A stretch of 64,000 nt of DNA from Sulfurovum sp. (GCA_027049035.1 JALTVI010000093.1:52197-116196); one strand, 5' to 3'; positions 6,188 to 56,442 are shown, numbered from the stretch's first letter. Translations and numbers: made by a program. Notes: generated from the sequence alone by a model not told the origin.

Positions 6188-7135
6188 TTGAGTCAAATCA
6201 TTCAAAACATCAAACAGGAAATGGCGAAGGTCGTTGTCGGTCAGGAGAAGATGGTAGAGGGGCTGCTTGCCGGTCTGCTCTGCCGAGGGCACATTCTGCT
6301 TGAAGGTGTTCCCGGACTTGCAAAGACCACGACAGTCAACGCGCTGGCAAAGAGCCTTGGGCTTGACTTTAAACGTGTGCAGTTCACCCCGGATCTGCTT
6401 CCCTCGGATATCATCGGTACGGAGATTTACGATCCCTCCAACAACAGTTTCAAGATCAAACAGGGGCCGGTCTTTACCAACCTGCTGCTTGCAGATGAAA
6501 TCAACCGTGCACCGGCGAAAGTACAGTCGGCCCTTTTGGAAGTGATGCAGGAGCGTCAGGTGACCATCGGGGATGAGACCTTCAAGATCGACCTGCCGTT
6601 CTTGGTCATGGCGACACAGAACCCCGTTGAGCAGGAGGGGGCGTATGAGCTTCCTGAAGCACAGCTTGACCGTTTTATGATGAAAGTAGTCGTCGGCTAC
6701 AACACCAAGGAAGAAGAGCTTGAGATCGCGCGCCGCGTGGCGAACAACGCCTTTGGCGAAATAGAGCAGGTAGCGACCAAAGAGGATATCGAACGCATCC
6801 GAAAAGAGGCGATGGATGTCCATATGGATGAAGAGGTGGAGCGCTATATCATTGAACTGGTTGCAGCCACCCGTGACCCAAAAGCCTACGGCCTTGAAGA
6901 GCTTGCACCGTTCATCGAATTCGGTGCCAGCCCGCGTGCGAGTATCGATATGTACAAGGCAAGCCGTGCAGTTGCCTACCTCAAGGGGCAGGACTATGTC
7001 TCACCCATCGAGATCGCCTATATCGCCAAAGAGGTACTCAGACACCGTATCATTCTCAGCTACGAAGCGCTTGCCGAAGAGATCACGCAGGATCAGATCA
7101 TTGAGAAGATACTGGCAGCGGTACCGATTCCGTGA
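6188..7135 (+). CDS. MoxR-family AAA+ ATPase
   Basis: TTG start. Walker A-like GVPGLAKT and Walker B LLADEINR. It is the first gene of a MoxR/DUF58/VWA (Bat) operon. Confidence 0.9.
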   Translation: MSQIIQNIKQEMAKVVVGQEKMVEGLLAGLLCRGHILLEGVPGLAKTTTVNALAKSLGLDFKRVQFTPDLLPSDIIGTEIYDPSNNSFKIKQGPVFTNLLLADEINRAPAKVQSALLEVMQERQVTIGDETFKIDLPFLVMATQNPVEQEGAYELPEAQLDRFMMKVVVGYNTKEEELEIARRVANNAFGEIEQVATKEDIERIRKEAMDVHMDEEVERYIIELVAATRDPKAYGLEELAPFIEFGASPRASIDMYKASRAVAYLKGQDYVSPIEIAYIAKEVLRHRIILSYEALAEEITQDQIIEKILAAVPIP

Positions 7136-7151
7136 TCTTCAGGGAAGATCA

Positions 7152-7273
7152 AATGAGGAATGAAAAATTAGGAATGAGGAATAAAGGTATGCTTTTTTGC
7201 AAAAAGCTTTTATTGAATAGAAGCGTTGCACAGCAACGCAAACCTACACTATTCACTATTCACTATTCACCAT
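7152..7273 (+). repeat. Intercistronic heptamer-array element, copy A (moxR / DUF58 spacer)
   Basis: From left to right it contains:
- a left array of (GGAATGA)-type 7-mers
- hairpin GCTTTTT-TGC-AAAAAGC followed by TTTTATTG
- hairpin GCGTTGC-ACA-GCAACGC
- a right array of (CTATTCA) x3. Confidence 0.8.
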
Positions 7274-7301
7274 TAACTAACCTCCAAACGGAGGTGTCCT
7301 G

Positions 7302-8132
7302 ATGAATAAAGTAGCCAAAAAGATTGTCCTTAAGACCAGAAAACAAGTCTATGGGGATATGCTGGGCAACAACGCTTCGCTCTTCCAGGGTGAGGGGTTC
7401 GAGTTTGCCGAGCTGCGTGAGTATGTTTACGGAGACGATGTCCGAAAGATCGACTGGAAGACCACGGCGAAGCTTGGCAAGCCCTTTGTCAAAGTTTACA
7501 AGGAAGAGCGTGAGCTTAATGTCGTTGTGGTGACGATGCTGAGCGGTTCGATGTATTTTGGTACCGTCAAGCAGAAGAGTGACATCGCTGCCGAGGTGGT
7601 GGGTACCATCGGGTTTTCGGCAGTCAAGAATGCTGATCTCTTTTCGCATATGCTCTTTGCAGACAGAATGTATGATTTGAGCAAACCCAACAAAAAGCTC
7701 TTCTCCGTGCACAAAGCCGTTGAAGAGGTGACCGAGTTCGACCCTCTGGGGAAGCCTGCCGATTTCAAGGCGCTGGTCGAGACGCTCAATACACGGCTGA
7801 AGAAGAAGGCACTGCTCTTTATCATCTCCGATTTTGTCGGCGAGATAGACCTCAAGCTGCTTAGCAAAAAACACGATGTCTTTGCCGTGATGATCCGTGA
7901 CAAATTCGAAGAGGACCCCAGCGAGCTTGGCTACCTGCGTCTGATTGATATGGAGACCAAACAGAGTTTCGAGGGCAATATCGACAGCGGTACACTGAAA
8001 AGCTATAAAAAGGCACTGCTGAAAAACGATGAGACGCTATACAGACAGTTCAAGAAGCAGGGGATCCGTTTTGTGAAGATTTATACGCATGAAGATGCGG
8101 CGGTGAAGCTGATGAAAGGAATGAGGGGTTAG
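7302..8132 (+). CDS. DUF58 domain protein (MoxR-associated)
   Basis: Carries the motif LREYVYGDDVRKIDWK, typical of DUF58 proteins that follow MoxR. Confidence 0.85.
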   Translation: MNKVAKKIVLKTRKQVYGDMLGNNASLFQGEGFEFAELREYVYGDDVRKIDWKTTAKLGKPFVKVYKEERELNVVVVTMLSGSMYFGTVKQKSDIAAEVVGTIGFSAVKNADLFSHMLFADRMYDLSKPNKKLFSVHKAVEEVTEFDPLGKPADFKALVETLNTRLKKKALLFIISDFVGEIDLKLLSKKHDVFAVMIRDKFEEDPSELGYLRLIDMETKQSFEGNIDSGTLKSYKKALLKNDETLYRQFKKQGIRFVKIYTHEDAAVKLMKGMRG

Positions 8133-8203
8133 TGAAGAGTGAAGAGAGAAGAGTGAATAGTGTCGGTATGCTTTGCGGTGCAAAGCTTTTATTGAAAGAA
8201 GAG
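8116..8203 (+). repeat. Intercistronic heptamer-array element, copy C
   Basis: The sequence GGAATGAGG overlaps the last codons of the DUF58 gene. After the TAG stop comes a (GTGAAGA)n array, then hairpin GCTTTGC-GGT-GCAAAGC plus TTTTATTG. The element ends with GAAGAGG immediately before the downstream ATG. Confidence 0.75.
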
Positions 8204-8213
8204 GAGTATTTGT

Positions 8214-8621
8214 ATGAATGAGCAGAATTTGACGGCGCAGTTGAAAGATATCAAGCCGCTGGTTGAGATTCCCGACAGCAGTTTTTATATCTACTGGGGG
8301 TTGATAGGCTTTGCAGTGCTGCTGGGGCTGGGCATCCTCTTTTTTGTCGCCAAGAGGCTCTGGGAGAACCGCAAGAAGAATCTTGCCAAAGAGTATCTTG
8401 CCGCACTCAAGTCCATAGACTGGAGCAACAGCAAGAAGGCTGCCTACGAGGCGACACACTATGCAAGGCTTCTGGCGACAGACGAGAGACGCAAAGAGCT
8501 CTTCAGCCAGCTTGAGCCGATGTTGGAGAAGTACAAATACAAAAAAGTGGTCGACAAAGTCGATGACGATACATTAAGACAATACAAACTTTTTGTGCAG
8601 GTGGCAGATGAGTCAATTTAG
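8214..8621 (+). CDS. Small single-TM membrane protein of the Bat operon (DUF4381-like position)
   Basis: One hydrophobic helix (FYIYWGLIGFAVLLGLGILFFV). It occupies the conserved slot between the DUF58 and BatA genes. Confidence 0.5.
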   Translation: MNEQNLTAQLKDIKPLVEIPDSSFYIYWGLIGFAVLLGLGILFFVAKRLWENRKKNLAKEYLAALKSIDWSNSKKAAYEATHYARLLATDERRKELFSQLEPMLEKYKYKKVVDKVDDDTLRQYKLFVQVADESI

Positions 8622-9525
8622 TTTTGAATACCCGTTAGCGTTTCTGGTCATACTTCTCTTTATGACCTGTGCGAAGTGGTGTAAAGAGAGAAGCCGTGCA
8701 ATTTTCTTCCCCCATGTTGCGACACTGATCGCGTCGGAGGGGCGAAAGAGCACATGGCTGAATATCCTCAAGTGGGTTGGCATCGTCGCGGCGGTGACGG
8801 CACTGGCATCGCCGGTGATCACCAAGAGTTACTCCAACTCCAAAAAGGAGGGGCGTGACATCGTTCTGGTCATCGACAGTTCCGATTCGATGCGCCAGCA
8901 GGGGTTCGACCCCAACGACATCTTTAAGAACAAGTTCGATGTCGTCAAAGAGGTGGTCGAAGACTTCATTAAAAAGCGAAAGGATGACCGCATAGGGCTG
9001 GTCACCTTTGCTGATGTAGCATTCATCGCCTCACCGCTGACGTTCGAGAAGGATTTTCTGACCAATATTACACGCATGCAGAAGCTGGGTATCGCAGGAA
9101 AGCGTACAGCGATCAATGACGCGCTGGTACAGGCATACAACCTGCTTGACAAGAGCAAGGCCAAAAGCAAGATTGTCATTCTGCTCACCGACGGTATCGA
9201 CAATATGAGCAAGGTGCCTTTCCAGGATGTCAAGAGTATGATCGAAAAGCGCAAGGTCAAACTTTATGCTATCGGTATCGGCGGATCGAGAGATTACGAT
9301 GCAGCCTACCTGACGGCACTGGCCAAAGCCGGGCATGGCGAAGCGTTCGGTGCGCGTGACGCGACAGCGCTCGAGCGTGTCTATGACGAGATCGACAAGA
9401 TGGAGGCAAGCAAGCTGAACAACAAAAAGGTGGTCGAACACACCTACCTCTTTATCTACCCGCTCTTTTTGGCGGTACTTAGTCTGCTGCTGTTCATCTA
9501 TTTTAGAAACCAGAGAGGAATATAG
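8608..9525 (+). CDS. batA: VWA-domain membrane protein, BatA-like
   Basis: N- and C-terminal TM helices flank a VWA domain with the MIDAS motif DSSDSM. The ATG at 8608 is preferred over the upstream TTG at 8593. Confidence 0.8.
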   Translation: MSQFSFEYPLAFLVILLFMTCAKWCKERSRAIFFPHVATLIASEGRKSTWLNILKWVGIVAAVTALASPVITKSYSNSKKEGRDIVLVIDSSDSMRQQGFDPNDIFKNKFDVVKEVVEDFIKKRKDDRIGLVTFADVAFIASPLTFEKDFLTNITRMQKLGIAGKRTAINDALVQAYNLLDKSKAKSKIVILLTDGIDNMSKVPFQDVKSMIEKRKVKLYAIGIGGSRDYDAAYLTALAKAGHGEAFGARDATALERVYDEIDKMEASKLNNKKVVEHTYLFIYPLFLAVLSLLLFIYFRNQRGI

Positions 9526-9652
9526 AATGAGGAATGAGGAATTAGGAATGAGGAGTGGAGGTATGCTTTTTTGCAAAAAGCTTTTATTGAATAGAAGCGT
9601 TGCGCAGCAACGCAAACCACAACTATTCACTATTCACTATTCACTATTCACT
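9525..9652 (+). repeat. Intercistronic heptamer-array element, copy B (near-identical core to copy A)
   Basis: It starts at the batA stop codon. A (GGAATGA)n array is followed by the same two hairpins as copy A, with 1-3 nt differences. The right array is (CTATTCA) x4. Confidence 0.85.
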
Positions 9653-9675
9653 CCCGACAGAAGGGAGGTACACTG

Positions 9676-10683
9676 ATGGAGTTCGCATACCCCTACCTCT
9701 TCTGGGTGATGATCGTGCCGTTCGTGCTCTTTGCCGTGCTGGTTTCGACCAACAAAGAGCGGCTTTCGCGCATTTTTGATGCGAAGGTGCTCGAGCGGCT
9801 CAGTGCCGGGGATGAGAGTATGCCCCAGCGGCTGCGGAACATCATCCTCTTTTCGGCGATCTTCTTTATGATCGTCGCGATGGCGCGTCCGGTGGTCGAT
9901 GAGGGTGAGAAGAGTGTCGATGTGCAGGGTCTGACCGTACTGACGGCGCTGGATATTTCCGGTTCGATGCGCAGCAAAGATGTCTACCCCAACCGTCTGG
10001 AGTTTGCCAAGAAGAAGATGATGGCGTTTTTCGACGATATGCCAAGCGATGAGGTGGGTGTGGCAGCCTTTGCCTACTCGTCGTTCATCCTGGCACCCTT
10101 TACCAGCGACAAAGAGACGCTGAAAATGCTGGTAGAAGGGGTCGATGACTCCTACATCAGTATGGGGTCGACCGACTTCAGTGCGCTTGGAGAGCTTGCG
10201 GCAAACGTGCTCAAGGAGAAAAAGCCTAAGATCCTTGTTCTTTTCACCGACGGTGGTGATGAAGAGGCGATCACAGGCTTTTCGGACATTCTGAAAGCCA
10301 ACAACATAGACCTCTATGTGGTGCTGGTGGGAACCAAAAAGGGCGCACCTGTTCTGGATGAGAACGGCAAGCCGATGCTGCTCAAAGACGGCAGCATTGC
10401 CATTACACAGCGTAACGACGCCCTCGGACTGCTTGCGAAAGAGAATGGGGGTGCCTACGTCATTGCAGGAAACGGAAAGGATGACATGAAAAAACTGGCA
10501 GACCTGATTCACGCAAAGTACAAGATGCAGTCACAGGGTAAAGTGCAGATCAGACAGCGTACGGAGTATTTCTACTACCCGCTGGCATTCGGGCTTATGC
10601 TGCTGCTGATCGGGCTGAGTTCTTTCCCGCGTTTTGGTAACGGAAGCAGACCGCGTGCAGCGGCTAAAGGAGGTGTGCAATGA
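9676..10683 (+). CDS. batB: VWA-domain membrane protein, BatB-like
   Basis: TM helices plus a VWA domain with the MIDAS motif DISGSM. It overlaps the next gene by 4 nt. Confidence 0.8.
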   Translation: MEFAYPYLFWVMIVPFVLFAVLVSTNKERLSRIFDAKVLERLSAGDESMPQRLRNIILFSAIFFMIVAMARPVVDEGEKSVDVQGLTVLTALDISGSMRSKDVYPNRLEFAKKKMMAFFDDMPSDEVGVAAFAYSSFILAPFTSDKETLKMLVEGVDDSYISMGSTDFSALGELAANVLKEKKPKILVLFTDGGDEEAITGFSDILKANNIDLYVVLVGTKKGAPVLDENGKPMLLKDGSIAITQRNDALGLLAKENGGAYVIAGNGKDDMKKLADLIHAKYKMQSQGKVQIRQRTEYFYYPLAFGLMLLLIGLSSFPRFGNGSRPRAAAKGGVQ

Positions 10684-11567
10684 TGTGGCCCAAAAAGATG
10701 GTACTGCTCTTGCTTCTTTCCGCTACGGCGGCATTTGCAGGCCTGACCGATTTCAAGACCATCAAAGAGGCCAAAGAGGCGTACCATGCCAAAGAGTACA
10801 CCAAGAGTGCCGCACTCTTCAACTCGCTTGAAAAGGAGGCGCCGCAAAAGGCGTACGACCTTGGCAATGCCTACTACAAGTCCAAAAACTACGATGCCGC
10901 ACTCAAGGAGTATGAGAAGGCAAAGGGTGAAGGGGTAGATGAGGCGCAGCGTCTGCACAATGTCGGAAACGTTCACTTTATGAAAAACGAGCTCGACAAG
11001 GCGATAGAGGCGTATGAAAAGGCGCTGAAGATACGAGAGGACAAAGATACGCGTTTCAACCTGGAGCTTGCCAAGCGCAAAAAGAAGCAGCAGGAACAGA
11101 AGAAGAAACAGCAGAAAAAACAGAATAAGCAGAACAAAGACCAAAAGAAAAACGACAAAAACAAAGATCAGAAGAAGAACGACCAGAACAAAAAGAACGA
11201 TAAACAGAACAAAGACCAGAAAAAGAACGACAAAAGCAAGCAAAACGAGAACAAGAACGGCCAGAAGAAGAAAGACGACAACAAAAAAGGCCAGGACAAG
11301 AAGAAGCAGGATCAGAAAAAGAAAGATCAGCAGAAAAAGGGTGACAAGTCCAAAGGGGATTCGCAAAAAGAGAAGAAGCCTCAGAACAAAAAGGGCAGTG
11401 AAGCTTCCGGTCAGCCCAAAAAGCAGAAGATGAGCAAAGAAGAGAAGCTCAAGCAGGCGGAGATGAAGCGTCTGCTCAAGAAGATGGGACAGAAGAAGAC
11501 GCCGACGATGATGTATCAGATGAGCGGCGGAAAACCCAAAGAGCGTAAGGATATTAGACCGTGGTAG
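10680..11567 (+). CDS. batC: TPR-repeat protein, BatC-like, with a long K/N/Q/D-rich low-complexity tail
   Basis: Signal-like N-terminus, then TPR-like repeats (AYDLGNAYYKSKNYDAALKEYEKA and similar). These are followed by about 150 aa of KDQKKND-type repeats. Confidence 0.7.
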   Translation: MMWPKKMVLLLLLSATAAFAGLTDFKTIKEAKEAYHAKEYTKSAALFNSLEKEAPQKAYDLGNAYYKSKNYDAALKEYEKAKGEGVDEAQRLHNVGNVHFMKNELDKAIEAYEKALKIREDKDTRFNLELAKRKKKQQEQKKKQQKKQNKQNKDQKKNDKNKDQKKNDQNKKNDKQNKDQKKNDKSKQNENKNGQKKKDDNKKGQDKKKQDQKKKDQQKKGDKSKGDSQKEKKPQNKKGSEASGQPKKQKMSKEEKLKQAEMKRLLKKMGQKKTPTMMYQMSGGKPKERKDIRPW

Positions 11568-18468: not shown

Positions 18469-18498
18469 GAGTTGACGGTACGCGAAAGCGTATGTCAA

Positions 18499-18805
18499 AA
18501 TTAGGAATTAGGAATTGATATCCCTTGCGGGACAGCCCCGCAAAACGTTATGCGTTCAACTAACGTTAAGCCGAAGCTGTACCTAAGGGCATACATTTCA
18601 ATAAAGCTTTCGGTTCCAAAATATTTCTGGAATCGGAGGCTTTAGCCCCGACATATGGTATTTGGGTAATTTACAATGTGCCGAAGCTAAAGCTTTCGGT
18701 TCCAAAAGTTACTAAGCTTCATATTAGTCAAATTCTGAAAAATTGCTACCTGCTACCTGCTACCTGCTACCTGCTACCTGCTACCTGCTACCTGCTACCT
18801 GCTAA
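18499..18805 (+). repeat. Composite repeat region between bamA and ppx, bounded by heptamer arrays
   Basis: (AATTAGG) x2.5 lies at 18499-18518. The internal duplicated motif AAAGCTTTCGGTTCCAAAA appears twice, near 18604 and 18689. (TGCTACC) x about 8.9 lies at 18744-18805 and abuts the ppx stop codon. Confidence 0.8.
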
Positions 18806-30472: not shown

Positions 30473-33162
30473 TGGATAAAGTAAGAATCCAGGAAGTAGC
30501 AGAAGAAGCGGGATTGTCTAACGGCGAACTCATAGAAAAAGCCAAGGAACTCGGTTTCGATGTCAAGGCGGCCAACAGTGCCATCAGTCTTGACGATGCG
30601 GGTATTCTCGTAGATTATGCTATCAGTGGAACGCTTCCAAAAGGCTTCAAGAAGCCAGAAGAGAAGAAAAGAAAGATCACGGTTACCAAGAAGAAAGCCA
30701 AAGAAGAGACTCCGTCTCCTAAAGCAGAGGAGAAAGAGACAGTTTCCGAAACAGTGACCGAGGAGGCTGCGGCTGCAGCACCTGAAACGGAAGCGGCTGC
30801 AGATGAGGCAAAAGTGGAAGAAACGGCTCCCGCGTCTCAGGAAGCGCCGGCAGAAGAGGTTGCTCCAGAGCCCAAAGAGGAGACTCCCGAAGCCAAGCCT
30901 GCTCCAAAACAGCGCAAGGGAATCTCTGTCGTCAACAAGAAGAGTGATGAAGAGGCAGAAGCGCCTGCACAGCCAAGACGCAAGACCCTTTCACGAAGCG
31001 GTATCAAGATCGTCAGAAAAGCTAAGCCTGCCCCCGGACGCGCGGCGAAGAACATCTCCATGGGTGATGTCGCGCCTGCACCTTCGAAGAAGAAGGTCAA
31101 AAAGGGACCTGCTCAGGCAAAAGAGACCGGGAAGAAGATCGATATCTTCAACCACGACAGTATGAGCGGCGAGATCGACAGCGGCTTTGGTGAAGAGGAA
31201 GTGGTACTGCTTGACTTCTCCGATAAGAACATCTACGAAGAGATGATGCGTCAGGAGCAGAAGCGTAGAGAAGAGGCGAAAAAACGTGAACTTGCAGGCG
31301 GGGGTACGACACGCGGCAGACAGCCGTTCCGCCCTCAACAGCGCCGTTCCCTCAAGCGTGGCGGAAAGCGCAAGAAGTATACCAAAGAGGAGAGTAGTAC
31401 ACAGATCACCTCTGTAGAGATCCCGGAAAATGTAAGGGTATACGAGTTTGCCGAGAAAGTCGGCAAGACTGCCGGTGATGTCATCAAGGTGCTTTTCGCA
31501 CTGGGAATGATGGTGACCAAAAACGACTTCCTCAGCAAAGACGAGATAGAGATTCTCGCCGAAGAGTTCGAAGTTGAAGTGACCACGATGAACCCGCTTG
31601 ACGAGCTGGACTATGTGGCTGCCTACGATGCGATCCCCGACGAGCACCTCGAGGAGCGTCCTCCGGTTATTACCATTATGGGGCACGTCGACCACGGAAA
31701 GACCTCTCTGCTCGACAAGATCCGTTCTGCCAAAGTGGCAGACAAGGAAGCGGGCGGGATCACCCAGCATGTGGGTGCCTACCAGGTCGAGAAGAACGGC
31801 AAGAAGATCACCTTTGTCGACACTCCGGGTCACGAAGCCTTTACCGAGATGCGTGCGCGTGGTGCACAGGCGACAGATATCGTCATTATCGTCGTTGCGG
31901 CTGATGACGGCGTGATGCCTCAGACCAAAGAGGCGATCGCCCATACCAAGGCTGCAGGTGTACCGATGATCGTTGCGATCAACAAGATAGACAAGCCAAA
32001 CGCCAACCCTGACAATGTCAAGGCACAGCTTGCCGAAATTGACGTTATGGCGGCAGATTGGGGCGGCGAGTATGAGTTTATTCCCGTCTCTGCACATACA
32101 GGAGAGGGGATTGACGATCTGCTTGAGACCATTCTACTGCAGGCGGAAGTGATGGAGCTCAAAGCCGATCCTACCAGAAAGGCAAAAGCGATTGTTGTCG
32201 AAAGCTCCCTTGAGAAGGGCTTTGGACCGGTTGCGAACGTGATTATCAAAAACGGTACACTCAATGTTGGAGACAATGTCATTGTCGGTCAGACATACGG
32301 GCGTGTCAGAGTTATCAAAGACGATGACGGCAAAAATGTCAAGTCTGCGCCGCCAAGTGCCCCTGTGGCGGTTGTCGGGCTCAATGACGTACCCGGTGCG
32401 GGTGAAGTCATGGTGGCGATGGACTCAGAAAAGGAGGTGCGCGAACTTGCCGAAAAGCGTGCAGAGTACGAAAGAGCCAAGCAGCTTTCCAAGAGTACCA
32501 AAGCGTCCTTGGAAGATCTCTCAGCACTCATTGCCGAGGGGCAGCTCAAGTCACTGCCTGTCATCATCAAAGCGGACGTTCAGGGCTCGCTTGAAGCGAT
32601 CAAGGGAAGCCTCGAGAAGCTGCGTAACGAAGAGGTCAAGGTCAACATCATCCACGAAGGCGTGGGCGGCGTGACCGAGAGTGACGTGACACTTGCCGAT
32701 GCGAGTGAACACGCCGTGATTTTGGGCTTTAACGTCAGACCGACAGGTGCGGTCAAGAAGAAGGCAAAAGAGCTTGGTGTGGAGATCAACACCTACAACA
32801 TCATCTACGACCTGCTTGACGATGTCAAAGCGCTCCTTGGCGGTATGATGAGCCCTGTGATCAAAGAAGAGGTTACAGGCCAGGCGGAAGTACGCGAAAC
32901 TTTCGTTGTCGGCAAAGTCGGTACCATTGCCGGATGTAAGGTCACTGAGGGTGTCATTACCCGTAACTCCAAGGCAAGACTCATCCGTGACGGCGTGGTG
33001 GTTTACGAAAGCGCCATCTCGTCACTCAAGCGCTTCAACGAAGATGCCAAAGAGGTCAAGAACGGATACGAGTGTGGTATTATGCTCGAGAACTTCAACG
33101 ACATCAAAGAGGGCGATGTAATCGAAACCTTCAAAGATGTCGAAGAGCAGGTAACACTCTAG
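30472..33162 (+). CDS. infB: Translation initiation factor IF-2
   Basis: G-domain motifs [20 protein letters not shown] and NKID, with a charged K/E/A/P-rich N-terminal region. Confidence 0.95.
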
Positions 33163-33250
33163 TGAAGAGCTAAGAGTGAAGAGCGAAGAACGAAGAGTTT
33201 CGGTGTGCATTGGATACAATGCTCTTAGTATGATGAATAGAGAAGAGGTC
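33160..33250 (+). repeat. Intercistronic heptamer-array element, copy D (infB / rbfA spacer)
   Basis: It begins at the infB TAG with TAGTGAAGAG, the same junction as copy C. GTGAAGA/GCGAAGA 7-mers are followed by hairpin GCATTG-GATA-CAATGC. The element ends with GAAGAGG immediately before the downstream ATG. Confidence 0.7.
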
Positions 33251-35079: not shown

Positions 35080-35815
35080 AAAACTGACCGACAAAGAGCA
35101 AAAACAGCAGAAGATCGTGGAGATGTTCGACGACATCGCTGACACCTATGATCTGGCAAATCGTGTACTGAGCATGGGTATTGACATTCAGTGGCGAAAA
35201 AAGGGGTGTGACAAAGCCTTTGAGATACTGGATAAAAAAACGCTTGGACAGGTGACAGACGTTGCGACAGGAACAGGTGACCTGCTCATCTACTGGCGCG
35301 AACAGGCCCAGAAGAACGGTGTGGAAATCGAGAAGTATGTCGGCATCGATCCTTCTGTTGGGATGCTTGAAGTGGCACGGAAAAAGGTCGATTTTGCCGA
35401 GTTTATCGAAGGCAAGGCGCAGGAGCTTCCCATCGCAGATGAAAGCAGCGATGTTATCTCCATCAGCTATGGTATCCGCAATGTCGTCGACAGACCCGAG
35501 GCGCTGAGAGAGTTCCACCGAGCCCTGAAACCTGGCGGTATTGTGGTGATTTTGGAGTTTACCAAGCAGGAACGTACGGGGATACTGGACAAAGTAGTCG
35601 ATTTCGGTATGAAAAAGGTGCTGCCGCGTATCGGCGGGCTCATCTCCAAAAACTATGAAGCCTACAAATACCTTCCAGACTCTATTGAAGAGTTCCTTAC
35701 TACTGAAATGCTAAGCCAGGAACTTGAAGAGGCAGGGTTCGAGATGAAATACACCAAATCGTTCTCTATGGGAATATCAACGCTTTTGGTCGCCCAAAAG
35801 CGGATGGATGATTGA
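35069..35815 (+). CDS. ubiE: Demethylmenaquinone/ubiquinone methyltransferase (UbiE/MenG)
   Basis: TTG start overlapping the ribD stop. Carries MFDDIADTYD and the SAM motif DVATGTGDL. Confidence 0.85.
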   Translation: MGIEKLTDKEQKQQKIVEMFDDIADTYDLANRVLSMGIDIQWRKKGCDKAFEILDKKTLGQVTDVATGTGDLLIYWREQAQKNGVEIEKYVGIDPSVGMLEVARKKVDFAEFIEGKAQELPIADESSDVISISYGIRNVVDRPEALREFHRALKPGGIVVILEFTKQERTGILDKVVDFGMKKVLPRIGGLISKNYEAYKYLPDSIEEFLTTEMLSQELEEAGFEMKYTKSFSMGISTLLVAQKRMDD

Positions 35816-35895
35816 TGATGGAAAATGGAGGATGATGTATTGCTGGTTCAAATATTAATCTTCAATCTTCAATCCTCAATCTTCAATCCATCATT
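35803..35895 (+). repeat. Intercistronic heptamer-array element, copy E (ubiE / xseA spacer)
   Basis: The left array of GGATGGA/TGATTGA/TGATGGA-type 7-mers overlaps the ubiE stop. The right array is (AATCTTC)-type x5, partly complementary to the left arm. Confidence 0.75.
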
Positions 35896-43983: not shown

Positions 43984-44731
43984 TGGCTATCCTTTGTTCT
44001 ATCACCTCAAATGCCGGTGAAAGGATCTTCTCCACATACGCTTCGCTCTCATCGTATATTTGGAGCAGGGTGCTAAATTGAGCGATACGACGGTTATCGT
44101 CATCATCAAAAGCATCATCCAGCATCTCTTCAAGTGCTCTCTTCTCTGCTTCATCAAATGCGATCTCGTAGATGCTTTTTCCGTTGCGTCTGCTTAGATC
44201 TACCACATCACTCTCCGTCAAGATAAGATACTCCGCCTTTGGAAATGCCCGGAAAAAGTCTCCATATTGAAATTGCAAACGCTTAGGGTTTCTTACCCTT
44301 GAGAGAGCAAAGATCACCGGCACATCAAAGCCCTTGATCATCTCATAGGTCTTTTCAGCGTTTTTCAAATCTTGGTATCCTCCGCTCATCGGAATAATAA
44401 AGAGATCGATCTTTCGATAAAGCCGTGTCTTTTTCAATCCCTCAATGATGATGGTGGTGGTTTTGTTACCGCCAACATCAATCACGATGTTTTTATCCTT
44501 GGGTACCAAGATTGTATCTTTCAATACTTCATCCACATCCGTACCGTCTCCGATCTCCACCTGGGATGATTTGATTTTGGAGTTTGAGAATGTTTCACTA
44601 TCTTTGTTCTCATCGTCAAACTCAATGAGCTGCACTTCCTGCTTTTTTGCAAGGAATGAAGCTGCTGCCACTTGAAATGCCACGGTGCTTTTTGATGCAC
44701 CTCCTTTTGTGTTTACTACTGTGATTGTCAT
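43967..44731 (-). CDS. parA: ParA-family partition ATPase
   Basis: Deviant Walker A motif in VVNTKGGASKST. About 254 aa. It overlaps its neighbours and so appears to be in an operon. Confidence 0.8.
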   Translation of the reverse strand: MTITVVNTKGGASKSTVAFQVAAASFLAKKQEVQLIEFDDENKDSETFSNSKIKSSQVEIGDGTDVDEVLKDTILVPKDKNIVIDVGGNKTTTIIIEGLKKTRLYRKIDLFIIPMSGGYQDLKNAEKTYEMIKGFDVPVIFALSRVRNPKRLQFQYGDFFRAFPKAEYLILTESDVVDLSRRNGKSIYEIAFDEAEKRALEEMLDDAFDDDDNRRIAQFSTLLQIYDESEAYVEKILSPAFEVIEQRIANGCQA

Positions 44732-45489
44732 TGTTTATCTTCCTTTTTTTGATGTAAGATAGGCAGTTGATCTGCTAAAGCATACGCATACAGTTTTTCC
44801 CATATCTCCATCGCACGGATCCCCTGAAAGGTCTCACCACTGATCCTGTCACAAAGAAGTCCTTTCCCTGTGATATAGATCTCTATTTTGCTATTGGTAT
44901 ACTGGTCTACCGAAGTGCCTATGGTGCTGTTCCTGTAGGTACCCCTCATATAGTTGATAAAACTGTTTTTAGATTTGAGAAAGCCGACTCTTTTAGAGAG
45001 AGAAGATATATTTATATCTTCTTGATGGTTTATATATGAGGGTTCAAGGTGTTCACCTGAGTGAACAGGGGTAGTGTTCACTTCGCATGATTTTTGTACT
45101 GTTTTAGCACTGTTCACAGAGTGAACACACTCTTTCTTCCTTTTTGCTTTTTGATATGCATTTTCAAACTCTTCAAGATACTTTTTGCGTTCTTTATTTT
45201 GAGAGAGTGCTACCGTTGCCAGCTTGGAAATATTGATCGTATAAAGTGTACTTGCATCACTACCGTTTTTTCTTTTTCTCTTTTTTCGGTCTATCATATT
45301 GATGCTCTCATATGCTTTAGCAATATAGGTGATATTGGTTTTCCCCATAGAGCACTTTTGTGAGAGTGTTGCCAAAGAAGGAAAGCATACCCCCTGATCA
45401 TTGGCGTTATCACATAATGCGAGCAGATAAACTTTTGATGAAGGTTTATAGGGTGTTTCAAATGCCAGTGTCATAAGCTTGATTGACAT
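44728..45489 (-). CDS. HTH-domain replication-initiator-like protein
   Basis: The N-terminal pattern (KVYLLALCDNANDQGVCFPSLATLSQKCSMGKTNI) is typical of HTH_36-type plasmid/phage replication proteins. Confidence 0.55.
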   Translation of the reverse strand: MSIKLMTLAFETPYKPSSKVYLLALCDNANDQGVCFPSLATLSQKCSMGKTNITYIAKAYESINMIDRKKRKRKNGSDASTLYTINISKLATVALSQNKERKKYLEEFENAYQKAKRKKECVHSVNSAKTVQKSCEVNTTPVHSGEHLEPSYINHQEDINISSLSKRVGFLKSKNSFINYMRGTYRNSTIGTSVDQYTNSKIEIYITGKGLLCDRISGETFQGIRAMEIWEKLYAYALADQLPILHQKKEDKQ

Positions 45490-45526
45490 TACTGTACCTC
45501 ATGTTTGGCTTGACGGATATTATTGG

Positions 45527-45694
45527 TCAGCCAGGTTTCGATCCATTCCCGTTTATAGACCACACATGTTTACCGGTTTTGGTATAGGTGATTTTTCTAT
45601 GCCTTCGTGCTTCAACCTGTGTATTCAAAGGGATTTTTGGAAAGCCTTCTGCTCTGCCTTCCGCCAGTTCTTTGGGATATATCCATTCACTCAT
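45527..45694 (-). pseudogene. Small excisionase/AlpA-like ORF, possibly frameshifted
   Basis: A hand-translated 55-aa ORF (MSEWIYPKELAEGRAEGFPK...) lies below the track's length cutoff. A second frame continues as VVYKREWIETWLTNNIRQAKHEVQ and stops at a TAATG overlapping the rep-like start. Confidence 0.25.
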
Positions 45695-45772
45695 TTTCGC
45701 TCCCATGCTTGATTTGTTGCAGTATAGAAAAATGCAAAAACGAATGTCAAATAGCCAAGTTTTATGAAAAAA

Positions 45773-45900
45773 GTGAGATGATCTAACGAAAGGGAAATAG
45801 AATTACCCAATGGGAAATTTGGTTTCCTTTTTTGTCTGTTTTGGTGAGTTGATCTAACGAAAAGGGTAATTTTATTTCCAGATTGGAAATTTGATTACCT
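45773..45900. repeat. Two imperfect direct repeats of about 55 bp (iteron-like), upstream of the rep-like operon
   Basis: The repeats are GTGAGATGATCTAACGAAAGGGAAATAGAATTACCCAATGGGAAATTTGGTTTCC (45773-45827) and GTGAGTTGATCTAACGAAAAGGGTAATTTTATTTCCAGATTGGAAATTTGATTACC (45845-45900). Confidence 0.6.
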
Positions 45901-46015
45901 CATGCAAAAAATGTGAAAAATGGTTGTTTTTTGTGTATTTGTGTAGTTTTGTTACATATTATGAGTCAATTGTTTGACTATATGCAAAGAAAGATAAATA
46001 AAAATTTAAATAGAC

Positions 46016-46948
46016 CTATGAATTGCCAATTTCTTTTATTAAATTGTAAACATGTATCTTCCCAATACCGGTTGAGCGTTTTTTACTTTTTACTGGAAAA
46101 TCATATAATGCGCCATAATTAGCATCTTCTCTACTATCTTCATTATTAACTAAAAAAACTGCACATCCAATTGCGTTGGGCTTTGTACCTATTGGAGCAA
46201 CTCTAAAACTTTTTCCTGTTTGAGCTATTTTTTCAAGTAGTTTCAAACTTTGATATGGATTATTTGCTGAGACATATTTTATTTCGGAAAAAGAATACCT
46301 AGGATCAAAAAATTTTAAATGGTTATTTATTGTTCTATTTTCCCAACCTGGTGAAAATCCTGGTAATGGAACAATAGGAATAAAGTTTTCGTAAATGACT
46401 TCCTCGGTTGAAAATATTTGACCTAACCTTTGTTTTTCAAAACCTAAGAAAACAACCAGTTCTACTTTTTCAAGTTCAGTATTTATTGTGAATCCTGGCA
46501 AAGGTGGAAATGGTTGGAGTTTATCGGATAAAGAGAATTCATCATGTGTTGTAATTGAACTGTTAAGAAACTGATACTCTGATGGTTCAACATACAGAAT
46601 TTGAATATTTTGTATAGTTTCCATTTTATTTGAGTCACTAAGAATATAAAGAATTTCTGCAAAACTCAATGTAGTTGCATCAATTATTATAGATGAATAT
46701 TTATATTTTTCCAGTAGTTCTTCCGTTAACTCATTTTTTTTGAATTTTTTTTCTTTGTCTTGAAAAGAAAAGTCCATTTCATCATATTTTAGATAAACTT
46801 TGTTTTTTATCTCTTGTTGATCAAAAAGGGATTCAACAAACCTTCCTCTATCGTCCAAAGCATAGTCTCCATGATACGCAACATAGTCGGTCTCAAATGA
46901 AACTTCATCTGGATTGTTATATGTTTCAATATTTTTAAATTTCCACAT
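46016..46948 (-). CDS. Hypothetical 310-aa protein, fourth gene of the AT-rich cassette
   Basis: The ATG at 46948 overlaps the upstream stop (TAATG). Possible Rossmann-like strand motifs are IIIDATTLS and VAPIGTKPNAIG. I recognise no family. Confidence 0.6.
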   Translation of the reverse strand: MWKFKNIETYNNPDEVSFETDYVAYHGDYALDDRGRFVESLFDQQEIKNKVYLKYDEMDFSFQDKEKKFKKNELTEELLEKYKYSSIIIDATTLSFAEILYILSDSNKMETIQNIQILYVEPSEYQFLNSSITTHDEFSLSDKLQPFPPLPGFTINTELEKVELVVFLGFEKQRLGQIFSTEEVIYENFIPIVPLPGFSPGWENRTINNHLKFFDPRYSFSEIKYVSANNPYQSLKLLEKIAQTGKSFRVAPIGTKPNAIGCAVFLVNNEDSREDANYGALYDFPVKSKKRSTGIGKIHVYNLIKEIGNS

Positions 46949-48945
46949 TAATAGTTTTCTCCAAACAAACCTAAGTCTCCCGCATCTTCTATTTTCCATT
47001 CTTTAACAAATTTCTTGTATAACTTGTCAAATTCTGCATCACTACTTAAAAAAAGAATTTTGATTTCTTCTGGACTAAAAACTATTTTATGTATCTTTCT
47101 CATACTAATCTTATAATAGGGAGCGAGAATAGGAGTTAACATAAATTCTTTTGTTACAATACTATCACTTGAGTCTTTTGTTGTTTCATCAAATTCTTGC
47201 AGTACATTCCAAAGCTTTGCTTCGTATAATAATGTATTAACCTTTTCATCAAGCGATTCTAATGCGTGTGTTTCAACAGAAAAATGTATATTCTCTGGTT
47301 TACTTTGAGTTTTTATTTTTTGCTTTAATGAGAAAACAATTCCTAGTCTATTTGCTATTTTTTGTAAGTCTTTACCGTAAGATCCCAGTTCCGAAATTGT
47401 ATCAAGCTCTTGTCTACTACAAAATTTAGCTGCTTTTGCTTGGAGTTCAATATTTACCTTTGGTATTTCTGCTTTTGCTTGAGTTGAGTTTTCAAACTCT
47501 ACAAATGATTGATAACATAATTCAAGTAAATGGCGTAAATTATTTCTGGACATTAAACAAAATCTCTCAAATCCTGCATATATTGGACATATTCTTTGAG
47601 GGAATGATATATAAATATATAATATTGAACCAACTAAAGTATTGGATATTTGTTCTTTATATGCTGATACAGCTTTAGATTTTACTCCTTTTTTGTATTC
47701 TTGAAATAATCTATATAATTCATCGGGTAATATACGAGACCTAAATAAAAGAGTTGCATTTACAACTGATGCATCAGGAAATTCTTCATCATAGAAATAT
47801 GAAGCTGGAAAATCACTACCTTTCGTTTTTAATGCAAGTTGTATATTTTTAATTAGCTTGTTCTTTAATGTTTTATCTGACATTATTAAATTAGCAATCT
47901 CTCTATAACTTAACGATGGAAATAACTCATTAGCAAATAAAATTATTCTATTTTTATACTCAGTTGATTTTCTATCTATAAGTTCCTTTTCTACTGATAT
48001 TCTATTTCTATCAATAATTTTATTTTCAGGGAAAAACTCTTGAATTTTCGATGCTATAATCTCAGCAGAGAGTAATTTGAAATCATCATCCGTTTTCGCA
48101 TATACATCATCAATTAAATCTATTATTCGATGATCATTTCTTCTTTGAGTATGTTCACTGCTTGTCGTTTCATCAGTTATATGAGCATGTTTTTTATATG
48201 CAATACTAAATATAAGAGGAGATTCTCCATGTTTCATCCATGTATTTATAATTTTTTGATGCTCTTCCCTTAAATTTTCAAATTCATCAATAAAAATATG
48301 AAAAGTTGTATCCTTAAAAAAATTATTATCTTTCCATATTTGGATTATATATTCTATTGTTGCTTTACCATCTAAATAAAAGTAAAAGTCATCTTTTGGA
48401 TTATGAAGCCAATTTTGCAACTTAAATAATAATCCTCTTATTTTTGTCCTCAATTCTACTAAACGAATTTCTTGATCAATTTTTAATTCTTCAGTAAAGT
48501 CTTTTGGTATCATAAAATCTTTTAATTTATTTTTCATGCTTATATCATCATAGTTTGACTCCAAGAATACATCAATAAGTTCTGAAAACTTCATTAATAG
48601 TGATAAGGCTACATATGTATTAAATACCGCATCCCATTTATTATCTAGATAAGACTCATTAATCAATTGAACAAAATGTGTATCTGGCTTCCAATATATA
48701 CCAATAGTATCAATATCATTTTTTACTAATTTAAGCCTTTTATTACTCAATTGCGTGTGATATGCATGATATTTAAGATACATTGTTTTTCCGGTACCTC
48801 TTCCACCAATAACTTTTACACCTTTAGTTTCATGTAATAAATTAAATTGAGCATAGTTTAATGGAAGAACATATTTTCCCCATAAATCATCAGGAAATTC
48901 TTCAGCTCTATTTTTCTTAAATATTTGAGATAGTCTTTGTTGCAT
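46948..48945 (-). CDS. 665-aa P-loop NTPase (AAA/ORC-Cdc6-like or STAND-like), third gene of the cassette
   Basis: Walker A motif VIGGRGTGKT and Walker B motif FHIFIDEFE. The large helical C-terminal region has no recognisable motif. Confidence 0.75.
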   Translation of the reverse strand: MQQRLSQIFKKNRAEEFPDDLWGKYVLPLNYAQFNLLHETKGVKVIGGRGTGKTMYLKYHAYHTQLSNKRLKLVKNDIDTIGIYWKPDTHFVQLINESYLDNKWDAVFNTYVALSLLMKFSELIDVFLESNYDDISMKNKLKDFMIPKDFTEELKIDQEIRLVELRTKIRGLLFKLQNWLHNPKDDFYFYLDGKATIEYIIQIWKDNNFFKDTTFHIFIDEFENLREEHQKIINTWMKHGESPLIFSIAYKKHAHITDETTSSEHTQRRNDHRIIDLIDDVYAKTDDDFKLLSAEIIASKIQEFFPENKIIDRNRISVEKELIDRKSTEYKNRIILFANELFPSLSYREIANLIMSDKTLKNKLIKNIQLALKTKGSDFPASYFYDEEFPDASVVNATLLFRSRILPDELYRLFQEYKKGVKSKAVSAYKEQISNTLVGSILYIYISFPQRICPIYAGFERFCLMSRNNLRHLLELCYQSFVEFENSTQAKAEIPKVNIELQAKAAKFCSRQELDTISELGSYGKDLQKIANRLGIVFSLKQKIKTQSKPENIHFSVETHALESLDEKVNTLLYEAKLWNVLQEFDETTKDSSDSIVTKEFMLTPILAPYYKISMRKIHKIVFSPEEIKILFLSSDAEFDKLYKKFVKEWKIEDAGDLGLFGENY

Positions 48946-48954
48946 TTTTTTCCT

Positions 48955-49860
48955 TTATCTTGGCACGAGATGATTCCAGGATTCGTCTGTATACCAAAGT
49001 ATTGGCAGTGTATTATTTGGAGTTGAAACTGAAAATAGATATGTTAAAGCGAGGTCACCTCTACCATACAATTCATTAGTTAATTTTGTTTTTTTATGTA
49101 TTAAGTCAATATACATAGCTTCAAGTTTTTCGAGATCAATACTTTCCACAATTTTTGGCATAAATTCCTTATTAAAAAAATTATATCGTTCATCTAGTAT
49201 TTCAACTGGGATTATTCTAACAGTGGGATATTTTTCATAGTTAAATGATTCTAAAGCGGTTTTAGTTGCCGATAGAGGGCAATAAAGTAAGATGAGCCCT
49301 TTAGTATCAGCATAAAATTTTTCTAAATATGTATTAAATTGTTCACCTGTTCCCATTATATCATCAAAAAGAACAACAATTTTACACAAAGATCTATCTA
49401 TCTCTGATAACTCTTCTGCTGAAACTTTTAATCTATTATGAAAACTTCCATGTCTTGCAAATTCTCTTAGAATTGTGCTACCACTTTTTCCTGTTTCTCT
49501 ATCTACATTTTCAACGGTAGAAAATCTTAAAGGTAATCCTGATCCTTTTACTAAGTTATTATGAAATTGATCAAGCGATGCAATTTCTAAAATTTCTAAC
49601 TTGTTTAGTTCTGTTGGTAAAATAATATCAACTATATATTGATACATAGAGAGCATAGATACATTATTCCTATATATTAGCCTATAAATAATAAGTGCTG
49701 ATAAAAATTTTTCATGATCTGTCTCAAAATTTCTTAACCATAATAAAAAGTCTTCTTCTTGTATGTCCCAAAAGTTGATTTTAATATATTTAATAGCACT
49801 TTCTTTCATATCGTCATAAAATTCTTTCCATTCTGAAGGCAGCTCAAACATCAATTTCAC
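48955..49860 (-). CDS. Phosphoribosyltransferase-like domain protein, second gene of the cassette
   Basis: The segment KIVVLFDDIMGTGEQF matches the PRPP-binding loop pattern of type I PRTases (hydrophobic strand, DD, then TG). The N-terminal 170 aa or so are unassigned. Confidence 0.6.
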   Translation of the reverse strand: MKLMFELPSEWKEFYDDMKESAIKYIKINFWDIQEEDFLLWLRNFETDHEKFLSALIIYRLIYRNNVSMLSMYQYIVDIILPTELNKLEILEIASLDQFHNNLVKGSGLPLRFSTVENVDRETGKSGSTILREFARHGSFHNRLKVSAEELSEIDRSLCKIVVLFDDIMGTGEQFNTYLEKFYADTKGLILLYCPLSATKTALESFNYEKYPTVRIIPVEILDERYNFFNKEFMPKIVESIDLEKLEAMYIDLIHKKTKLTNELYGRGDLALTYLFSVSTPNNTLPILWYTDESWNHLVPR

Positions 49861-51031
49861 CTTTTATATAAATTGGAAAGTTTTCCACATCACTAAGAGT
49901 GATATGCTTTGCCGCAACGCCTTTAGCACAAGCATGAATCATTTTCTGCCCTTCTTCTGAGGACAAAAATCTAAAGATGATACTTCTAAAATCCATCTTT
50001 GCTCTAATAATAATCACACAATCTGTAGGTACAAAATATCCTTTTTCAACTATACTTATTTTTCCAATAACAGAGGTGCCTACACGAGCTAAGACTATAT
50101 CTCCAGCTCGTGCAATTTTTGTAGAATATTTTGTTAATTTTGATGAAGACTGTAGACTATTCGACACTGTATCCTTTTTTAATGAAGTTGTATGAAGAAT
50201 ATGTCGATTAGGAACTTCATTTAGCATATATTTAGATTTTCCTCTAAATATTTCTGCAACATCTTTCAGCTTTTTAGCTTTCTTGGGAAGAATTTGATTA
50301 TTGATATAATTAAATGAGAAATCTGATCTCGTGATAGCTTCATCCGTACTTATTTTTATTTTCTTCCCATCGAGGTTGGAAAGTATAATATTATAGTTTT
50401 GATTTTGAAAACTTTTTTTCAAAATCATAATATGAGTTTTCGCTGGAGTGTTCTTAAATATATTACTTGGTAGCTCAACTATTTTTTCAATATGATAGTT
50501 GAAAAATAAAAATTTCCTAAAATATGCCAATGACTCGTTAGTGAAAAATCCATCTGGCAATATGAGTGCCAGTGTTCCATTGTCTTTTAATATTTTCAGG
50601 TTTTGAAGTATAAATGGAATTTCTGAAGGGATGTATTTCCCTTTATTATATTTTTGCAAATCAAATTCAGCCAAAAGTCTATCGATATCCTTATCTTTTT
50701 TGATTTTGTGAAATGGTGGGTTTCCCAAACATAGATCCACTTTTCCAGTGATACTAGATATTTTATTTATCGTATTATATTTAAGTACATCAAAATTTGT
50801 ACAATGTAGATTAGGGCATAAAGTTGTTATTTTTTTGCAACAATACAAATCAATATCGTTACCATAATAATGAGATAGATCCCAACGCTTTTTTGCTTCA
50901 ATCAAAAGTGCCCCTTCTCCAATTGCAAGATCAATTATTTTTTCTGGAGAAGAAATGTTTAATTCATTAATCAAAATTTGACTATATTTGGCAGGTGTAA
51001 AAAATTGTTTAAATGTCGCTGCCATTGTCAT
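49844..51031 (-). CDS. Gamma-class N6-adenine DNA methyltransferase with a fused target-recognition domain, first gene of the cassette
   Basis: Motif X is QFFTP, motif I is IIDLAIGEGALL and motif IV is NPPF. The C-terminal half resembles a single HsdS-type TRD (ARAGDIVLARVGTSVIGKISIV). Confidence 0.85.
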   Translation of the reverse strand: MTMAATFKQFFTPAKYSQILINELNISSPEKIIDLAIGEGALLIEAKKRWDLSHYYGNDIDLYCCKKITTLCPNLHCTNFDVLKYNTINKISSITGKVDLCLGNPPFHKIKKDKDIDRLLAEFDLQKYNKGKYIPSEIPFILQNLKILKDNGTLALILPDGFFTNESLAYFRKFLFFNYHIEKIVELPSNIFKNTPAKTHIMILKKSFQNQNYNIILSNLDGKKIKISTDEAITRSDFSFNYINNQILPKKAKKLKDVAEIFRGKSKYMLNEVPNRHILHTTSLKKDTVSNSLQSSSKLTKYSTKIARAGDIVLARVGTSVIGKISIVEKGYFVPTDCVIIIRAKMDFRSIIFRFLSSEEGQKMIHACAKGVAAKHITLSDVENFPIYIKGEIDV

Positions 51032-51786: not shown

Positions 51787-51821
51787 GGCTGTTGCACAGT
51801 TTTGTAGTCACATCGTAATGG

Positions 51822-53502: not shown

Positions 53503-53623
53503 TCCAATAATATTCATTGTGGGGTTTTCAATTCCTTCAAAATTAAAAGGATCCTCATTTTTGGCTTTGATCAAAGTTGATGATATACTGAGGTAAGGTA
53601 AGTAGGGCTTTTGCGGGGGCTGA

Positions 53624-56433: not shown

Positions 56434-56442
56434 TATTTCTTG

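Follow-up and report, generated by a model that had tools for sequence, protein, structure and literature searches.

We analyzed a 64-kb stretch of DNA from the deep-sea bacterium Sulfurovum sp. (the window, to which all coordinates refer), where a family of repeat elements built on tandem heptanucleotides lies at the junctions between genes. The element copies are labeled A to H, and L-numbers denote comparison loci from relatives, other genomes, and contigs. The listed copies are most likely a modular mosaic of DNA repeats and not one structured RNA. Their basic unit comprises an optional boundary hairpin, a C-poor heptanucleotide array, and a palindromic module of 29 to 31 nt that reads GTATGC, a 7-bp stem, a 3-nt loop, and GCTTTTATTG. 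The best-supported account of these units, and one that we consider somewhat probable, is turnover of slippage-prone repeats at the DNA level, filtered by the translation signals of neighboring genes; a dedicated regulatory switch is, most likely, not what these elements are. An identical sequence to the window exists in ENA as metagenome scaffold ERZ23495399 (REYS20-1 scaffold_369), and the DUF58 protein of the window shares 95 to 96% identity with proteins from Sulfurovum metagenome-assembled genomes (MAGs).

We detected arrays with Tandem Repeats Finder (TRF) together with a stringent period-7 detector that was run alongside composition-preserving shuffles, and TRF confirms arrays of 7-nt period at every site listed in a preliminary description of this DNA. 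TRF places period-7 arrays at 7152, 7247, 8131, 9525, 9622, 18499, 18744, 33164, 35803, 35857, 56505, and 61926, scores the array at 56442 as period 8 with indels, and finds a further array at 62263 that had not been listed. The stringent detector reports nine arrays of period 7 in the window versus 0.05 in the shuffles, three to five arrays of period 5 to 6, and none of period 8 to 12. Although coding sequence makes up 91% of the window, 13 of the 14 arrays are intergenic (binomial P = 4e-13). The commonest heptamers are AGTGAAT and AGTGAAG, with AATGAGG, AATTAGG, and AGGTAGG among the others, and their register is constant.

The arrays also keep a characteristic position. Throughout the Sulfurovaceae, they either start between about -11 and +30 nt from the upstream stop codon, often supplying that stop, or lie on the other strand and end 8 to 29 nt before the downstream start. 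Whatever the orientation, it is always the 5′ end of the purine strand that lies against a gene. The purine strand of an array in the window carries 0 to 9 stop codons and the complementary strand 0 to 4. The idea that the arrays are designed three-frame stop cassettes is weakened by the count of closed frames, as all frames are closed in only 6 of the 13 intergenic window arrays. Several early observations on these junctions stand: TAGTGAAGAG occurs 3′ of both the DUF58 gene and infB, GAAGAGG/GGAGG-type sequences resembling a Shine-Dalgarno (SD) sequence precede the downstream ATG, and the gene names serS, leuA, infB, rbfA, MoxR, DUF58, and BatA/B are correct. The sequence GGAATGAGG at the C terminus of the DUF58 protein, which had been assigned to the element, is instead native coding sequence that is kept in relatives without the element.

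A hairpin followed by TTTTATTG, as first described, is found exactly at four sites (7188, 8167, 9562, and 61963), with none expected, and the window holds seven copies of the palindromic module, with further copies in many Sulfurovaceae loci. When we scanned the pattern GTATGC-N13-GCTTTTATTG against 185,579 species genomes, about 20 of the 116 matches were true hairpins, all of them in Sulfurovum, Nitratifractor, or related vent MAGs. Each true hairpin has a purine-rich heptamer array directly upstream, in one and the same register (...AGTGAAT AGTTTTG GTATGC...). The flanks of the module are invariant at GTATGC and the stem sequence varies among copies. The module is a conserved structure with compensatory stem changes: across 24 copies, 97.6% of stem cells are paired, compared with 30 to 51% in slid controls, and five of the seven pairs change on both sides. 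On its gene-proximal side, the array adjoins a hairpin in 24 of 57 units versus 37 of 570 control positions, and such boundary hairpins often cover the ribosome-binding site of the following gene. A scan for terminator-like hairpins picked out 8170-8186 on the plus strand and 7239-7223 and 9613-9597 on the minus strand. With Rfam covariance models, the tRNA was the only match in the window to reach the gathering score, and the elements themselves gave no match at E ≤ 1.

A unit may stand alone, in one orientation or the other, as in B, E, and H, or form part of a convergent pair, as in A and C. A covariance model trained on GTATGC hairpin copies from the Sulfurovaceae matches recovered two minus-strand units outside its training set, at 7214-7258 (E = 5e-8) and 9588-9632 (E = 8e-8), so the "second heptamer run" reported for A and C is the purine array of an inverted unit. 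Composed of two convergent units each, A (7143-7304) and C (9517-9678) share 85% identity over 162 nt. A near-identical pair of copies had indeed been noticed but was taken to be A and B; it is the first and third copies that match, and B shares with them only a 64-nt unit at 69 to 72% identity. Nor does every copy combine array and conserved hairpin. The combination holds for A, B, C, E, and H and fails for D, F, and G, which are heptamer arrays flanking unrelated hairpins. The arms of the serS/leuA copy are not exact reverse complements, since the left arm is imperfect, but the long hairpin expected there is still predicted, at about -39 kcal/mol.

Two other structural ideas were considered. 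A single long conserved hairpin formed by both arms is rejected, since it folds in the window and is lost in the close relatives L117 and L118. Boundary hairpins as inverted duplications of the host flank are partly rejected, with L142 and L152 fitting this origin. Identical boundary hairpins stand beside two different genes in L068, which indicates that at least some of them are carried by the element.

To follow the elements among relatives, we examined the MoxR-DUF58-Bat operon in 34 copies from Sulfurovaceae. Most of the junctions are empty, with spacers of 0 to 40 nt, and other, filled junctions hold the heptamer-hairpin element, a variant hairpin (GTATGCGGTGCAGTGGCTCCGC), or GTAG-type REPs. 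Copy B, which the window shares with L119, is an 85-nt indel with clean edges: L117 and L118 lack it, and in these two the DUF58 stop codon overlaps the next start; the filled and empty genomes compared here have 95 to 96% protein identity. Smaller steps are seen at site C, where the plus-strand hairpin module is a 33-nt indel relative to L117 and L118, a 21-nt indel amounting to three repeat units occurs in L158, and L121 and L126 have no element at all. Orthologous units change in concert, through AATGAGG, AATGAGA, AATTAAA, and TAATGAA in one series and CTATTCA, CTCTTCA, and CTCATCA in another. The earlier suggestion of a slippage-prone repeat class is supported by these comparisons, as arrays at orthologous sites differ in their number of whole units, the units within an array shift together, and modules come and go as clean indels. 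Unit number, which the preliminary description proposed to compare among strains, varies between relatives but is identical in independent samples of the same population. We also considered a target-site duplication at B and rejected it, because the similarity on its right-hand side, TTATTGAA-N-AGAAG, is common to A and C and so belongs to the element and not to a duplicated target.

Heptamer arrays of the same kind extend far beyond this family. The array (AGTGAAK)3 occurs at a minimum of 120 genome loci in many phyla (chance expectation about 2) and in no fewer than 120 viral contigs, both counts being lower bounds; (AATKAGG)3 is found in 103 viral contigs, and composition-matched control units gave 18 and 35. 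The notion of AGTGAAK as a uniquely universal unit is weakened by controls that are only 3 to 7 times rarer. For TGANTAG arrays, all four units were found (46 with A, 38 with T, 21 with G, and 13 with C at N), so unit preference is moderate. An inverted pyrimidine partner lies within 160 nt of 22% of arrays and 1.4% of controls, a 16-fold difference, and stems of at least 7 bp follow 14% of arrays versus 3% of controls; a lax hairpin scan downstream of arrays showed no enrichment. The rule that the 5′ end abuts an open reading frame (ORF) holds in diverse genomes and viral contigs, with medians of 10 to 36 nt on the 5′ side versus 94 to 135 nt on the 3′ side. The GTATGC hairpin was found in none of 100 viral loci and in none of 100 array-bearing genome loci except two from Sulfurovum, a BLAST search with element A against plasmids and phages gave no match, and a literature search on the unit sequences returned no bacterial paper.

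Some viral contigs are rich in such arrays. The 100-kb contig IMGVR_UViG_3300021256_000006 carries at least seven (AATKAGG)n arrays in the loci examined (L542, L545, L557, L570, L571, L577, and L606), and (TTGACAG)n-type arrays often follow them. In L539 and L560, convergent array-hairpin-hairpin-array composites contain hairpins that end in TTTGATTGAA, reminiscent of the Sulfurovum TTTTATTGAA.

In the explanation that we favor, arrays would grow, shrink, and homogenize through replication slippage, a process suggested by the indels of whole units and by the way units change in concert. Restricted to Sulfurovaceae, nested in the arrays, and gained and lost in discrete steps, the hairpin module would be a REP-like dispersed repeat, and its stem pairing may be kept either by selection or by template switching within the palindrome. 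The strand rule would then describe the survivors, namely those arrangements that are compatible with the translation signals of the neighboring genes. The stop-rich, C-poor strand would be tolerated as the coding strand just past a stop codon, often providing that stop, and the G-poor, nearly stop-free strand would face the next start, with a fresh SD usually in a hairpin. Elements of this kind would turn an overlapping or tightly coupled junction into a structured spacer of 90 to 170 nt that probably uncouples translation, and the added RNA hairpins may act as leaky terminators or 3′-end protectors.

Several observations weigh against this explanation. The identity of arrays in independent samples of the same population indicates that they are not hypermutable on short timescales. 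The third unit keeps its variant form (AATTAGG or AATTAGA) through a change at position 7 that affects every unit, and some units are 2 to 8 times commoner than composition-matched controls across phyla; together, these two facts make pure slippage incomplete as a cause. Closure of all three frames is not general, as noted above. No terminal inverted repeats, convincing target-site duplication, or transposase that would account for spread were found, the last without a systematic search. Finally, ribosome-binding sites (RBSs) beside arrays are buried in a stable hairpin (minimum free energy [MFE] ≤ -6 kcal/mol) in 18 of 27 cases versus 33 of 351 control genes, which hints at a selected role.

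The cross-phylum and viral units with their positional rule, the 16-fold excess of convergent pairing, and the 7-fold excess of buried RBSs allow a broader reading, which we put forward only tentatively and think unlikely. The unit could be a mobile "junction cassette" placed between coupled genes, with a stop-rich heptamer leader at one end and a hairpin-masked SD at the other, and the arrays could be a non-neutral, pan-bacterial and phage form of gene-end punctuation. Purine-rich arrays after stop codons might in that case come from a sequence-biased process or be bound by a conserved factor, a proposal that we likewise hold to be improbable.

A second possibility is that the units belong to the MITE, REPIN, or PATE type of non-autonomous transposable element, in which a hairpin-recognizing transposase located elsewhere copies units or pairs of units into junctions; we judge this rather unlikely. 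The heptamer arrays would be either part of the element or its preferred target, and each of these versions seems to us equally doubtful. Such elements would explain the clean presence or absence of 85 nt at near-identical junctions, the two 162-nt copies with 85% identity beside unrelated genes, the identical boundary hairpins at two L068 genes, and the conserved flanks that bracket a variable stem, as well as the repeated insertion into one loop of hisH and other small inserts within arrays of L119, L007, and L125. GTAG-type REPs and tyrosine transposases are, moreover, known in Sulfurovum (PMC3733652). The alignments nevertheless do not define terminal inverted repeats or a target-site duplication, and by the standards of a MITE, filled-versus-empty alignments show no such duplication and the composite arms are independent arrays whose pairing is not conserved. 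No transposase turned up, although no systematic search was made. The modules also vary independently, with arrays that lack the hairpin and hairpin indels in an otherwise conserved element, and similar heptamer arrays occur in phyla without the GTATGC hairpin.

The preliminary description had inferred control of mRNA processing, stability, or attenuation within operons. As dedicated cis-acting RNA elements, the U-tract hairpins would serve as leaky intrinsic terminators or blocks to 3′ exonucleases, a role that we consider quite unlikely; in a related version with a similarly low probability, the arrays and SD-masking hairpins would tune downstream translation, for example through a ribosome standby site before a closed RBS. 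Three hairpins do fit the terminator-like pattern, stems are maintained by compensatory changes, and the elements provide both stop codon and SD. The excess of buried RBSs described above points the same way, as does an SD that is paired beside arrays in 12 of 27 cases versus 61 of 351 control genes. Dedicated control is nonetheless unsupported: solo hairpin units are nearly balanced with respect to co-directional neighbors (15 sense and 12 antisense), the majority of orthologous junctions carry no element, three close relatives do without the hairpin module at site C, the pairing between arms predicted in the window is lost in close relatives, and no Rfam family matches. Judging from the predicted folds, effects at the RNA level are possible.

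HutP binds (UAG-N4)3 and offers an analogy for a protein that reads a 7-nt period. That the arrays are platforms for such a single-stranded RNA- or DNA-binding protein (candidates being ribosomal protein S1, cold-shock proteins, or CsrA) is very unlikely: the period is strictly 7 while unit sequence varies, most units place NAG at 7-nt spacing (UAG in AGTGAAT and AATTAGG, GAG in AATGAGG), some units are preferred across phyla, and similar proposals exist for TAACTGA repeats (PMC4679880), but arrays lie on either strand relative to transcription, units without AG exist (TATTGGT and GATGGAT), unit sequence drifts among orthologous arrays, and no candidate protein emerged from the analysis.

The arrays are members of a known, unexplained class of bacterial heptameric simple-sequence repeats. 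Among long simple repeats, heptamers show the strongest over-representation in many bacterial genomes, their period of 7 and their role are unexplained, and polymerase slippage has been proposed as their cause (PMC4692102, PMC4679880). Known examples are GGGAATC in Xanthomonas, GGGGA(C/T)T in Nostoc, and the STRR of heterocystous cyanobacteria (Rehm et al. 2015, PMC4692102, citing Mrazek et al. 2007). According to the same work, the G-rich strand is the coding strand when the array follows a stop codon (at 0 to 50 nt, often with overlap) and the non-coding strand when it closely precedes a start (PMC4692102); the positional and strand rule of the Sulfurovum arrays is this published rule. The Xanthomonas and Nostoc repeats resemble ours in their 7-nt unit, typically about four copies, strong intergenic bias, occasional convergent inverted pairs, occurrence at the same loci in relatives with differences in length and sequence, lack of a link to phase-variable genes, and unexplained function. 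The units here (AGTGAAK, AATKAGG, and TATTGGT) differ in having no G-tracts, so G-quadruplexes are not expected; the Sulfurovum units lack the four or more G3-4 tracts that such structures take. The fixed-register palindrome and the frequent boundary hairpins seen here are not described there. The Sulfurovum elements are a lineage-specific version of the known heptamer repeats.

The TAACTGA repeats of marine Beggiatoaceae, some cyanobacteria, and Bacteroidetes (MacGregor 2015, PMC4679880) are similar in forming intergenic arrays of two to six copies near start codons, in carrying stops on one strand with the other translatable, in occasional in-frame copies within genes, and in their scattered phylogenetic distribution; S1, Csp, and CsrA have been proposed as binders (PMC4679880). 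They differ in having one dominant unit, with related heptamers rarely repeated, whereas many related units occur here, and no associated conserved hairpin is described for them (PMC4679880).

The comparison with STRR and REP/BIME elements drawn in the preliminary description is apt. REP, BIME, and REPIN sequences are short dispersed palindromes of proteobacteria with conserved flanking bases. Like them, the Sulfurovum units occur singly or as inverted pairs in intergenic mosaics, lie within operons, and are gained and lost among relatives. The tag, however, is GTATGC and not GTAG or CGTC, the stem varies among copies, and a heptamer array always precedes the module; the spacers also contain true GTAG REPs (62018-62039), which form a family of their own. 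BOX elements of Streptococcus pneumoniae and Correia elements of Neisseria are modular intergenic repeats with variable numbers of internal subunits. They share with our elements co-transcription with neighboring genes and the capacity to form long hairpins, but their subunits are at least 45 nt, their ends are boxA/boxC or terminal inverted repeats with a TA duplication, and they have no sequence similarity to the Sulfurovum elements. Intrinsic terminators have the same 7-bp stem, basal G-C pairs, and 3-nt loop followed by TTTTATTG. Unlike terminators, the module has conserved bases on its 5′ side and beyond the U-tract, and it lies inside operons, in several cases between co-transcribed genes, with no sense preference.

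The Sulfurovum case makes the heptamer question testable through a register-locked hairpin, filled and empty junctions, and concerted unit changes, with further handles in the in-frame hot spot of hisH, the hairpin-masked RBSs, and the cross-phylum and viral units with their 5′-ORF rule. The replacement of native stop codons and RBSs also matters for annotation and for operon models in Campylobacterota. Because the G-poor strand is nearly stop-free, the arrays create spurious antisense ORFs. They also break short-read assemblies, as seen in Logan contig L361 (SRR10312489), which is identical to the window and has its end inside an element array, beginning within the 3′ array of A. The individual features are collected in Table 1.

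Table 1. Components of element copies A to H and of the in-frame array in hisH, with window coordinates and means of detection.
Feature	Coordinates	Strand	Evidence	Details
A, boundary hairpin TGATCTTCAGGGAAGATCA, contains MoxR stop	7133-7151	+	MFE fold, hairpin scan	Present in L117 and L118; absent from L119 and L122
A, C-free heptamer array, AATGAGG/AATTAGG type	7152-7186	+	TRF, array detector	
A, hairpin module GTATGC-N13-GCTTTTATTG	7187-7215	+	Pattern match; covariance match 7172-7216, 58.9 bits	
A, inverted second unit	7214-7279	-	Covariance match 7214-7258; terminator-like; array	On minus strand: (AGTGAAT)n, GTTTGC, hairpin 7223-7239, TTCTATTC
A, hairpin ACCTCCAAACGGAGGT pairing DUF58 SD	7280-7295	+	Fold -9.8 kcal/mol, SD paired	DUF58 gene starts at ATG 7302
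B, array AGTGAAG/AGTGAAT	8129-8163	+	TRF, array detector	First unit gives DUF58 stop TAG at 8130-8132
B, hairpin module (8166-8194) and AAAGAAGAGGAGTATTTGT	8166-8213	+	Pattern match; covariance model 66.2 bits; terminator-like; empty-site alignment	AAAGAAGAGGAGTATTTGT is the SD source for the next gene (ATG at 8214)
C, array and hairpin module 9561-9589	9521-9589	+	TRF, pattern match, covariance model	Array region holds BatA stop TAG at 9523-9525
C, inverted unit and SD hairpin	9588-9667	-	Covariance match E = 8e-8; terminator scan; fold	Hairpin 9597-9613; (AGTGAAT)n at 9619-9655; SD hairpin CTCCCGACAGAAGGGAG at 9651-9667; BatB ATG at 9676
D left, hairpin and (AATTAGG)x2.6, 3′ of bamA-like gene	18471-18520	+	TRF, fold	
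D right, (AGGTAGC)x8.7 from ppx/gppA stop codon	18740-18807	-	TRF, array detector	Central 220 nt of D: unrelated repeat TAAAGCTTTCGGTTCCAAAA twice
E, infB stop TAG opening AGTGAAG/AGCGAAG array; degenerate module; GAAGAGG	33160-33250	+	TRF; covariance 33188-33229, E = 0.009	Degenerate module reads GTGTGC..; GAAGAGG is rbfA SD; sequence identical in second sample
F, boundary hairpin and two arrays	35781-35890	.	TRF, fold, array detector	Hairpin 35781-35802; plus-strand array 35802-35838 overlapping ubiE end and stop codon; minus-strand array 35853-35890, 8 nt upstream of xseA; lacks the conserved module
G, convergent (TATTGGT)n arrays around hairpin 56482-56499	56440-56538	.	TRF, fold	Arrays after serS (plus strand) and after leuA (minus strand)
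H, boundary hairpin, (GGATTGA)n array, hairpin module 61962-61990	61903-61990	+	TRF, pattern match, covariance model, fold	Boundary hairpin 61903-61926 pairs hisA start region; antisense to its operon (hisH to hisA, both minus strand)
In-frame array AAGATGG/AGGATGG within hisH, encoding KRMEDERWKMEDGRS	62255-62298	-	TRF, orthologue comparison	

The in-frame array in hisH lies at an insertion hot spot, the HisH surface loop after GWNELFVQ, which was compared in L160 to L239; the orthologue base state is 203 aa. The cargo of the loop depends on lineage and includes in-frame heptamer arrays that differ in unit and run in either direction, REPs that are likewise in frame (L189 and L206), and, in L225, L227, and L236, a repeat of about 60 nt, present once or twice. 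The native sequence of this loop is the palindrome CTTTTTGTGCAAAAAG.

Between hisH and hisA, a GTAG-tagged REP, TGTAGGGTGCGTAATCACGCACC, stands beside the heptamer unit at 62018-62039, and similar GTAGGG palindromes occupy other junctions in L005, L027, L063, L065, L126, L127, L131, L132, L139, L141, and L147. These agree with the GTAG class of REPs reported for Sulfurovum sp. NBC37-1 (PMC3733652).

Arrays can themselves hold foreign inserts. An insert of about 32 nt, CCAAGGGCACTTGTCACTTYGTTCGGGCGCAC, lies within arrays of two genomes (L119 at about 6290-6325 and L007 at about 2690-2720), the array at the corresponding site of L125 contains another, different insert, and arrays apparently serve other small elements as landing sites. 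A further arrangement is seen about 3.1 kb downstream of the DUF58 gene in L124, L129, L130, L142, and L143, where (AAAAATG/AAAAATT)n, followed by GGAG, precedes a start codon by 6 to 8 nt and an antisense (AGTGAAT)n array comes directly behind the A-rich one. Several of these genomes have no GTATGC hairpin in these loci, and at the same junction of the window the genes overlap and there is no element.

In the middle of D (18602-18707), TAAAGCTTTCGGTTCCAAAA is an exact 20-nt direct repeat whose copies are 86 nt apart, set in an imperfect inverted repeat of 36 nt, and none of the other comparison loci matches it exactly. At about 44000-54000, GC content is 0.28-0.34, compared with about 0.50 in the rest of the window, and transcription runs mostly on the minus strand; this low-GC block is probably an island gained by horizontal transfer. 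It holds none of the listed elements, and the only two marginal 2.1-copy arrays lie at 46080 (TTTTTAC), inside it, and at 62477, outside it. Dense A-rich repeats with periods of 9 to 75 at 11082-11339, within the ORF at 10680-11567 downstream of BatB, are a low-complexity coding stretch rich in Lys, Glu, and Gln and are unrelated to the heptamer arrays.

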